64,000 bases of DNA from Phycisphaerae bacterium (GCA_035275405.1 DATEMU010000015.1:737768-801767); one strand, 5' to 3'; numbered from the stretch's first letter, positions 22,105 through 22,300 are shown. The notes: generated by a model from the sequence alone, not told the origin. Program-made: numbers and translations.

Positions 22105-22300
22105 TCGAACGGTCGCACGTTCACTCCTTAGAAACAGGGCGATAGCCCTAGGTCGCGAAAGCGACCCTGAAGCCTCCTTAGGGAGGCGCCTCGGAATCAG
22201 AATTGATTTCCGGGGTACTGCCCCCACGCGTCAGAGCGAAGACGGACGCCGGGTTGCGATGCCGTTCCGAACGGTTTGGAACCGCATCTCGGGGCACCGA
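22105..22300 (+). ncRNA. candidate structured leader or ncRNA (possible RT template/guide RNA)
   Basis: Consecutive stem-loops: agggc-gata-gccct; aggtcgc-GAAA-gcgacct; gcctcc-ttag-ggaggc; ggaa(t)tca-gaat-tgatttcc; gatgccgttcc-gaacggttt-ggaaccgcatc. It lies between the promoter and the first RBS (aaggag at 22304). Confidence 0.4.

Follow-up and report, generated by a model that had tools for sequence, protein, structure and literature searches.

A structured leader in a Phycisphaerae bacterium as the probable 5' non-coding half of a Type VI retron hybrid RNA

A 64,000-nucleotide stretch of DNA from a Phycisphaerae bacterium (hereafter the window) contains a highly structured leader of about 200 nt followed by three genes, the last of which encodes a retron-type reverse transcriptase (RT). 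The question raised by this locus is whether the leader serves the RT as a cognate non-coding RNA (ncRNA) or regulates the genes directly downstream of it. The first-pass annotation had offered both possibilities, and within the reach of sequence analysis its interpretation is supported; in the architecture of Type VI retrons, both are true of one and the same RNA. The leader is probably the non-coding half, on the 5' side, of a Type VI retron's 'hybrid RNA'.

Type VI retrons comprise a clade-3 RT, a Cro/C1 helix-turn-helix (HTH) protein, and a three-helix protein of 75-79 aa (PMC7736814), and no ncRNA was found for them originally. Retron-Vpa2, a Type VI retron of Vibrio parahaemolyticus, has a hybrid RNA of ~470 nt, in which an msr-msd region is joined to the translationally repressed ORF of a small protein (SP) toxin. 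This RNA binds both the RT and the HTH protein, and its cDNA accumulates on triggering only and is required for SP translation (Zhang et al., bioRxiv 10.1101/2025.10.22.683967). In the Retron-Sen3/cl2075 lineage, the ncRNA is located within ~280 nt of the SP, its basal stem contains the SP RBS, and its inverted repeat is immediately preceded by a stem-loop on the 5' side (Garcia-Rodriguez et al., bioRxiv 10.64898/2026.04.27.721009). Published Type VI lineages come mainly from Proteobacteria and Bacteroidetes.

The leader and its genes occupy an island of ~2.3 kb (21970-24300) between ispG (GcpE, 20758-21963) and a metallophosphoesterase gene. The island looks acquired, since its GC content is ~0.50 against 0.63-0.68 in the flanks; the genome is at ~0.65, and the leader, at 0.63, stands out from the surrounding island. 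The first gene (22315..22560, +) starts with GUG and encodes an SP of 81 aa that has no match in Pfam, PADLOC, or NCBIfam. Its AF2 model consists of three helices (H2-23, H28-50, and H54-79; pLDDT 77). A word-indexed search with the SP returned nothing but the SP itself, and phmmer against 1.84 billion representatives gave two true homologues only, the other matches being long repetitive proteins. No sequence similarity was detected in these searches outside its own small clade; the SP clusters named in the literature are cl2075, cl2760, cl3272, and cl3897. Small homologous ORFs occupy the SP position in all related loci. On the basis of position, size, and predicted fold, the SP is presumed to be the Type VI toxin effector.

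The second gene (22597..22977, +) begins at ATG 22597 behind the SD GGAGG (22586-22590) and encodes a Cro/C1-type HTH protein of 126 aa. It matches Pfam HTH_3 (7e-12) and, as its best PADLOC match, HTH_VI (2.6e-13), and in NCBIfam it resembles HipB/Y4mF-like antitoxin HTH proteins. The third gene (22977..23999, +), which begins on the last nucleotide of the HTH stop codon (1-nt overlap), encodes the RT of 340 aa (Pfam RVT_1), which is 100% identical to a protein from a Phycisphaerae MAG. RT_VI is the best of 35 PADLOC RT models (1e-50, 170.6 bits) and RT_other the next (150.4 bits), a modest margin of only ~20 bits for an assignment by profile scores. Retron models of NCBIfam match the RT with scores under their cut-offs. 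The first-pass annotation had also mentioned DRT2 and DRT9, which are UG/Abi-type defence RTs, among the RTs that use structured ncRNAs; an assignment to these lacks support, because the best 25 PADLOC hits are all retron RT models and the NCBIfam matches are to retron families.

Both an HTH gene overlapping the RT gene and a small helical SP 5' of the HTH, in the Type VI size range of ~55-80 aa, are therefore present. The separation of leader and RT by ~700 bp and two ORFs had been called atypical in the first-pass annotation. For Type VI retrons this distance is canonical, as ncRNA-SP-HTH-RT is the published gene order. In addition to this order, the locus shares with Type VI retrons a structured RNA 5' of the SP, an SP RBS within the basal stem, and the three-helix SP. 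The stem-loop that precedes the inverted repeat in published systems is drawn here in the window and in L054, with weak local hairpins at this place in L001, L036, and L038.

A sigma-70-like promoter precedes the leader (22063..22090, +), with TTGACT at 22063-22068, a 16-nt spacer, and a TG-extended TATTAT at 22085-22090 (TGnTATTAT). It matches 10 of the 12 consensus positions and is the sole promoter-like site on the + strand within 21900-24400. The start of transcription is inferred to lie at ~22097, and equivalent promoters are found 5' of the leader in the relatives as well. Directly 5' of the -35 box is the palindrome ATCTC-N5-GAGAT (22043..22057), which is perfect in the related locus L036 and has one or two mismatches in L038, L001, and L054. 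Its place relative to the promoter is kept although the upstream flanks of these loci are unrelated, and it may be an operator for the HTH protein. No terminator was found between the leader and the SP gene, no tRNA or tmRNA was detected near the leader, and Rfam 15, searched at E <= 1 over 20000-27000, gave no match, its retron msr models included.

The leader folds far better than expected from its composition. The segment 22095-22314 reaches -107.3 kcal/mol (z -5.96); dinucleotide shuffles average -78.3 +/- 4.9, and 0/200 are as stable. The value of z is -8.80 when the SP is included (22095-22600). The exact interval of the first-pass annotation, 22105-22300, gives z -4.18 on the + strand. 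The promoter and the run of stem-loops described there are present in the sequence, and all four of its loops (GAUA, GAAA, UUAG, and GAAU) recur in the hairpins HP1 to HP4.

The leader is composed of six hairpins enclosed by a basal helix. HP1 (22136-22149) is AGGGC-GAUA-GCCCU, and HP2 (22151-22166) is GGUCGC-GAAA-GCGACC. The single-stranded motif CCCUGAAG (22165..22172) follows, with invariant columns that read CCUGA.G in both clades. HP3 (22172-22187) is GCCUCC-UUAG-GGAGGC, and HP4 (22188-22216) has the loop GAAU on 12 bp with one bulge. A second single-stranded motif, CUGCCCCCAC (22218..22227; GCC.CCAC in both clades), leads to HP5 (22228-22249), the least conserved of the hairpins, with a 5-bp stem and a 12-nt loop. 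HP6 (22249-22292) is an extended hairpin that starts within the conserved motif GCCGGGUUGCGAUG (22248-22261) and, at ~44 nt, is the longest of the leader. All of these elements are on the + strand. At the 5' end, the MFE folds draw a stem-loop (5' SL, 22100-22122, +) whose alternative partner is the start codon together with SP codons 4-7. Its loop GAACGGU is identical in L054. In L001, L036, and L038, where local hairpins are weak, the folds join this segment to the start-codon region instead.

The first-pass annotation had placed an 11-bp stem, gatgccgttcc/ggaaccgcatc, right before the RBS. The stem exists but is not perfect, its sixth position being a C.C mismatch, and in the MFE a 1x1 loop divides it into 5 bp and 8 bp. 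The four-sequence consensus favours CCGGG/CUCGG, UGCG/CGCA, and GUUCCGA/UUGGAAC over this drawing. The strong RBS reported there is CUAAGGAG at 22302-22309, before GUG 22315. A feature absent from that description is the long-range helix that runs around the hairpins and sequesters the SD and the start codon.

This composite helix has three segments. The anti-SD ACUCCUUAG (22123..22131, +), the 5' arm of the basal helix and a1-like in position, pairs in every fold with the SD CUAAGGAG(U) (22302..22310, +), which is the 3' or a2-like arm. GCGUG at 22313-22317, which contains the GUG start (22315-22317), has 22116-22120 as its partner, and GACCGUUC at 22326-22333, covering codons 4-7, has 22107-22114 (both +). 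In folds of each leader with its first 15 codons, both the SD and the start codon are taken up by the 5' leader in each of the five close loci (the window, L001, L036, L038, and L054), and the helix reached the early codons in the window, L036, and L054.

The lock is kept in these loci with differing sequences. The SD arms are ACUCCUUAG/CUAAGGAGU in the window, and CUAUCGGU/ACCGAUGG, CUCCUAG/CUAGGAG, GCCU(U)CCAG/CUGGAGGC, and UCUCCUAG/CUAGGAGA in the other close loci. The 5' arm pairs with its own initiation region better than 200/200 shuffled arms do in each of the four close loci tested. In the second sub-clade of the RT, the 5' arm beats the shuffles in four of six loci (threshold <=3/200); there the SD lies within a local hairpin, and the start codon is in a long-range helix with the leader. 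Sequestration of the SD and the start codon is thus maintained by compensatory change at the level of sequence, which argues for the lock, more than for any one sequence, as the selected feature of the type. Since this pairing is kept and own-arm duplexes beat shuffled ones, repression of SP translation is the best supported function of the leader, and it is well supported by comparison of the loci.

The comparative loci are those of RT homologues with 40-62% identity, taken from metagenome contigs, genome contigs, and exact look-up. The order SP-HTH-RT is seen in 16/16 related loci inspected and is complete in 14, as L039 is cut within the SP and L043 before it. A four-locus set (the window, L001, L036, and L038) was aligned with MAFFT, blind to structure, and RNAalifold gave 43 pairs. 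In this alignment 90.1% of cells are paired and 21 of the 43 pairs are double-changed, a level of covariation that was reached in 0/500 shuffles, with slid-partner controls at 1-3. HP1 corresponds to helix 2 and shows compensatory changes, HP2 is helix 3 with 100% of its cells paired, and HP6 comprises helices 8-9. Little or no variation is seen in the single-stranded motifs CCCUGAAG, CUGCCCCCAC, and GCCGGGUUGCGAUG, which are present in the second sub-clade as well. The separate consensus of that sub-clade comprises 52 pairs, of which 26 are compensatory.

Across both RT sub-clades the MAFFT alignment is too poor for RNAalifold, and HP4 was the sole helix recovered. Iterated covariance models solved this problem. 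The model of the core named R1 has strong matches in four close loci and weak ones in four loci of the second sub-clade. The model R2, rebuilt from seven sequences, finds the core 5' of the SP on the + strand in 11/11 loci of the RT clade, including four loci outside its training set (E 1e-8 to 4e-3). The model-fitted alignment of the 11 loci has 93.4% of cells paired and compensatory changes at 23 of 33 pairs, with 81 compensatory cells where shuffles give 27.7 +/- 4.8 and slid controls 9-13. HP2 (helix 1) is double-changed at 6/6 pairs and HP3 (helix 2) at 4/5. HP4 (helix 3) is 100% paired and has a conserved base, CCUCG/CGRGG, below a top of variable length, and HP6 comprises helices 4-5. 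The first-pass annotation had named unconserved stems in homologous loci as the result that would count against it; that comparison has been run, and the stems are conserved with compensatory changes.

The core is also strictly coupled to the gene module. L054 was reached through the SP alone (phmmer), which is 47% identical, and its contig holds the RNA core 19 nt 5' of the SP (76.9 bits, E 7e-17). The 64-kb window contains a single core match on the + strand, the other being a 13.3-bit partial match opposite HP6 (E 0.46). G.U pairs in conserved helices and gene orientation favour the + strand for the RNA. A motif scan of 2.9 million viral contigs gave nine pattern matches, of which the covariance model confirmed none. 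Structure, conservation, covariation, and strict coupling to the SP-HTH-RT module are thus shown by sequence comparison.

These data bear on the reading of the leader as a riboswitch-like element that senses a ligand or protein and is unrelated to the RT, or as chance structure in GC-rich DNA. Nothing specific favours it beyond the minus strand of the interval 22105-22300, which also beats its shuffles (z -3.35). Covariation excludes chance, the Rfam search at E <= 1 was blank, and the element is found only beside this SP-HTH-RT module, as one copy in the window. The reading is scarcely tenable.

The check for an a1/a2-type repeat proposed in the first-pass annotation turned up the a1/a2-like basal helix itself, 22123-22131/22302-22310, whose 5' arm ends in G. 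This G is kept in three of the four loci compared (the window, L036, and L038; L001 was the fourth) and also in L054, and G22131 is a candidate branching G. A terminal a1/a2 repeat with a G at the end of its 5' arm is also found in canonical msr-msd RNAs such as Ec86/Eco1, where a multi-hairpin RNA likewise lies 5' of a retron-type RT. The repeat and the G seen here would fit a stand-alone msr-msd RNA with its own ends, giving rise to an abundant branched msDNA antitoxin independent of the SP mRNA. In contrast to the canonical elements, in which the ncRNA adjoins the RT, the leader lies ~680 bp upstream with two ORFs between, its a2-like arm is the RBS, it has no long msd hairpin, and it has no Rfam msr match. 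As the a2-like arm is the SD of the SP, the leader RNA is inseparable from the SP mRNA; moreover, no terminator follows this arm, and the helix runs on to the start and early codons. Most Type VI retrons tested have no detectable msDNA at rest, and Type VI cDNA is not a constitutive antitoxin, so the expected logic is inverted between the canonical and Type VI systems. A stand-alone msr-msd RNA is therefore very improbable here.

The motif C of the RT complicates the reading of the leader as a template. It is Y194-G195-D196-N197 (23556-23567), so that YGDN replaces YxDD and the second catalytic Asp is an Asn. Y/F-G-D-N is invariant in 10 aligned clade RTs (P0001-P0010) with identity down to 40%, and it is seen again in L032. 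More distant relatives of the RT have [YWF][VGA]DD. The RT is intact and retains the motif A Asp (D118) and the first Asp of motif C, but with YGDN in place of YxDD its polymerase activity cannot be assumed. A literature search for YGDN reverse transcriptases found nothing relevant. The C-terminal third of the RT contains the invariant residues C280 and H293, with C267, C330, C335, and C337 nearly so, which suggests a metal-binding C-terminal module in this clade.

The YGDN motif, together with the lack of any long msd-like hairpin in the leader, speaks against a template role. Both would suit a leader that acts purely in cis to lock or attenuate translation of a small toxin mRNA, in the manner of the long-range 5'-3' folds of the hok and tisB type I toxin mRNAs, and that is never reverse transcribed while the YGDN RT acts non-catalytically or on another template. 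Sequestration of the SD and the start codon is, in addition, the best supported function, YGDN is clade-wide, and the HTH-SP module of Retron-Sen3 reportedly needs neither the RT nor the ncRNA in order to work (bioRxiv 10.64898/2026.04.27.721009). However, a lock requires two arms only, yet loci whose RTs are only 40% identical still have the six covarying hairpins and the three invariant single-stranded motifs. This conservation of the core beyond the lock arms implies a further function, for example protein binding or templating. Moreover, the RT is intact with its motif A Asp and first motif C Asp, and in both characterised Type VI retrons the region equivalent to the leader is the RT template. 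The cis-acting lock as the whole explanation is thus unlikely, although less so than the readings discussed above.

The hybrid-RNA reading is preferred because the covarying hairpins and invariant motifs, the strict coupling to the RT clade, and the published precedent point to a role beyond the lock. In this scheme, transcription would start at ~22097 and proceed through the leader into the SP gene without a terminator. The leader would fold into the multi-hairpin core HP1-HP6 (22136-22292), closed by the composite helix 22123-22131/22302-22310, 22116-22120/22313-22317, and 22107-22114/22326-33, and this lock would prevent translation of the SP, the presumed toxin. From what is described for Retron-Vpa2 and Retron-Sen3, we infer by analogy that the core serves as RT template: it would be bound by an RT-HTH complex and reverse transcribed in part. 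If priming is canonical and takes place at the G of the a1-like arm (G22131), copying would begin from ~22301 and HP6 would be copied first. Phage infection may then open the lock and lead to the production or release of SP, which would arrest growth.

A contiguous transcript of ncRNA and SP is a published trait of Type VI retrons, and here the position of the SD inside the basal helix and the lack of a terminator between the two would fit such a transcript. A possible 3' feature of it is a perfect 14-bp hairpin with the loop AUA (22552..22582, +), which covers the stop codon of the SP and finishes on an unused ATG. It is specific to the window and absent in the relatives, and since it lacks a T-run it was not scored as a terminator. 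It could mark the 3' boundary or a protective end of the hybrid RNA, or it may be another operator.

Compared with Retron-Vpa2, the locus has the same ncRNA-SP-HTH-RT order and likewise a structured region that runs straight into the ORF of a small helical protein, its arms tied by inverted repeats. The two differ in the lock: in this locus the 5' leader is itself the partner of the SD and the start codon, without a conserved pairing beyond the SP. A conserved pairing of the leader with the region 3' of the SP stop (IR1-IR2 or a1/a2) was not found. IR1-IR2 pairing around the SP is described for specific Type VI lineages and is not a defining feature. Vpa2 has a YADD RT and an SP of 55 aa, whereas the RT here is YGDN and the SP has 81 aa; the relatives of Vpa2 have conserved 7-nt direct repeats without a conserved counterpart here; and the host phylum differs, being Planctomycetota in this case.

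Retron-Sen3/cl2075 likewise shares with the locus an ncRNA at most ~280 nt from the SP start, several stem-loops, terminal inverted repeats, and an SP RBS in the basal stem. In contrast, Sen3 has an internal stem-loop of ~166 nt (SL3) as its candidate msd, while no hairpin of this leader is longer than ~44 nt. Pairing of IR1 with IR2 around the SP, as in that lineage, is not seen here, and the DD at 193-194 of the Sen3 RT corresponds to D196-N197. R2 gave no match in the more distant Type VI-like loci that were fetched, and because the covariance models miss these loci, homology with the Vpa2 and Sen3 RNAs is not demonstrated.

In type I toxin mRNAs such as hok/Sok and tisB, too, the 5' end of the mRNA pairs over a long range with the SD and start of a small toxin ORF and conceals them. 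The locus differs from them in its lack of an evident antisense RNA gene, in the conserved multi-hairpin core inside the lock, and in the RT and HTH protein that belong to the module.

Two 8-nt direct repeats tie the 5' lock arm to HP6 and HP3, and 0/1000 shuffles give two such repeats. The repeat CGAACGGU (CGAACGGT) is found at 22106-22113, where it hides codons 4-7, and again at 22268-22275 in the apical part of HP6. The repeat CUCCUUAG (CTCCTTAG) is found at 22124-22131 in the anti-SD and at 22174-22181 in the apical part of HP3. Reverse transcripts of HP6 and HP3 would carry ACCGTTCG and CTAAGGAG and so mimic the early-codon and SD segments of the SP mRNA. Such cDNA could titrate the 5' arm and free the RBS, acting as a two-site key to the translational lock. 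The YGDN RTs would carry out this derepression, and the replacement of the second Asp would possibly limit basal synthesis. No repeats of at least 6 nt in the same relation are present in L001, L036, L038, or L054, and owing to this absence from four close relatives the key is put forward only as a conjecture, one that is rather doubtful. If true, it would be a sequence-explicit form of the msDNA-dependent derepression proposed for Vpa2.

The hybrid-RNA design, in which template, protein scaffold, and locked toxin mRNA are united in one transcript, was described in 2025-26 in two proteobacterial lineages. This locus and 11 relatives would extend it to a clade associated with Planctomycetota. 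The Type VI hybrid RNA itself is already known; it occurs here in a new host phylum and beside an RT with an unusual motif. No similarity to the RNA core or the SP was detected outside the clade, in a comparison that did not include the Vpa2 and Sen3 RNA models and the named SP clusters. The clade-wide YGDN offers a natural test of how much polymerase activity these systems require. As to annotation, a structured 'leader' should be assigned to the retron even when two ORFs separate it from the retron RT.

Some further observations concern the surroundings of the module and the second sub-clade. An ORF with a TTG start (23959-24255, +; 98 aa) overlaps the RT end within the low-GC island; it has neither a Pfam match nor similarity to the ORF that follows the RT gene in L036, and it may or may not be a gene. 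At 25577-28678, two neighbouring proteins with NHL-repeat beta-propellers have weak matches to PADLOC PD-T4-6 (1e-8 and 2e-6), of which no stretch passes on its own; the repeats probably cause these matches, which would then have no link to the retron. In the second sub-clade, RNAalifold paired the box GUUCUUUGRCAAYU with the start codon, a pairing that was set aside since by eye it is true in some loci only; the box may also be an operator. The box is near-invariant and forms the first ~14 nt of the predicted transcript after a TATACT-like -10, at 105-118 in L003, 1544-1557 in L041, 571-584 in L042, and 379-392 in L044, and it is also present in L030, L040, and L032.
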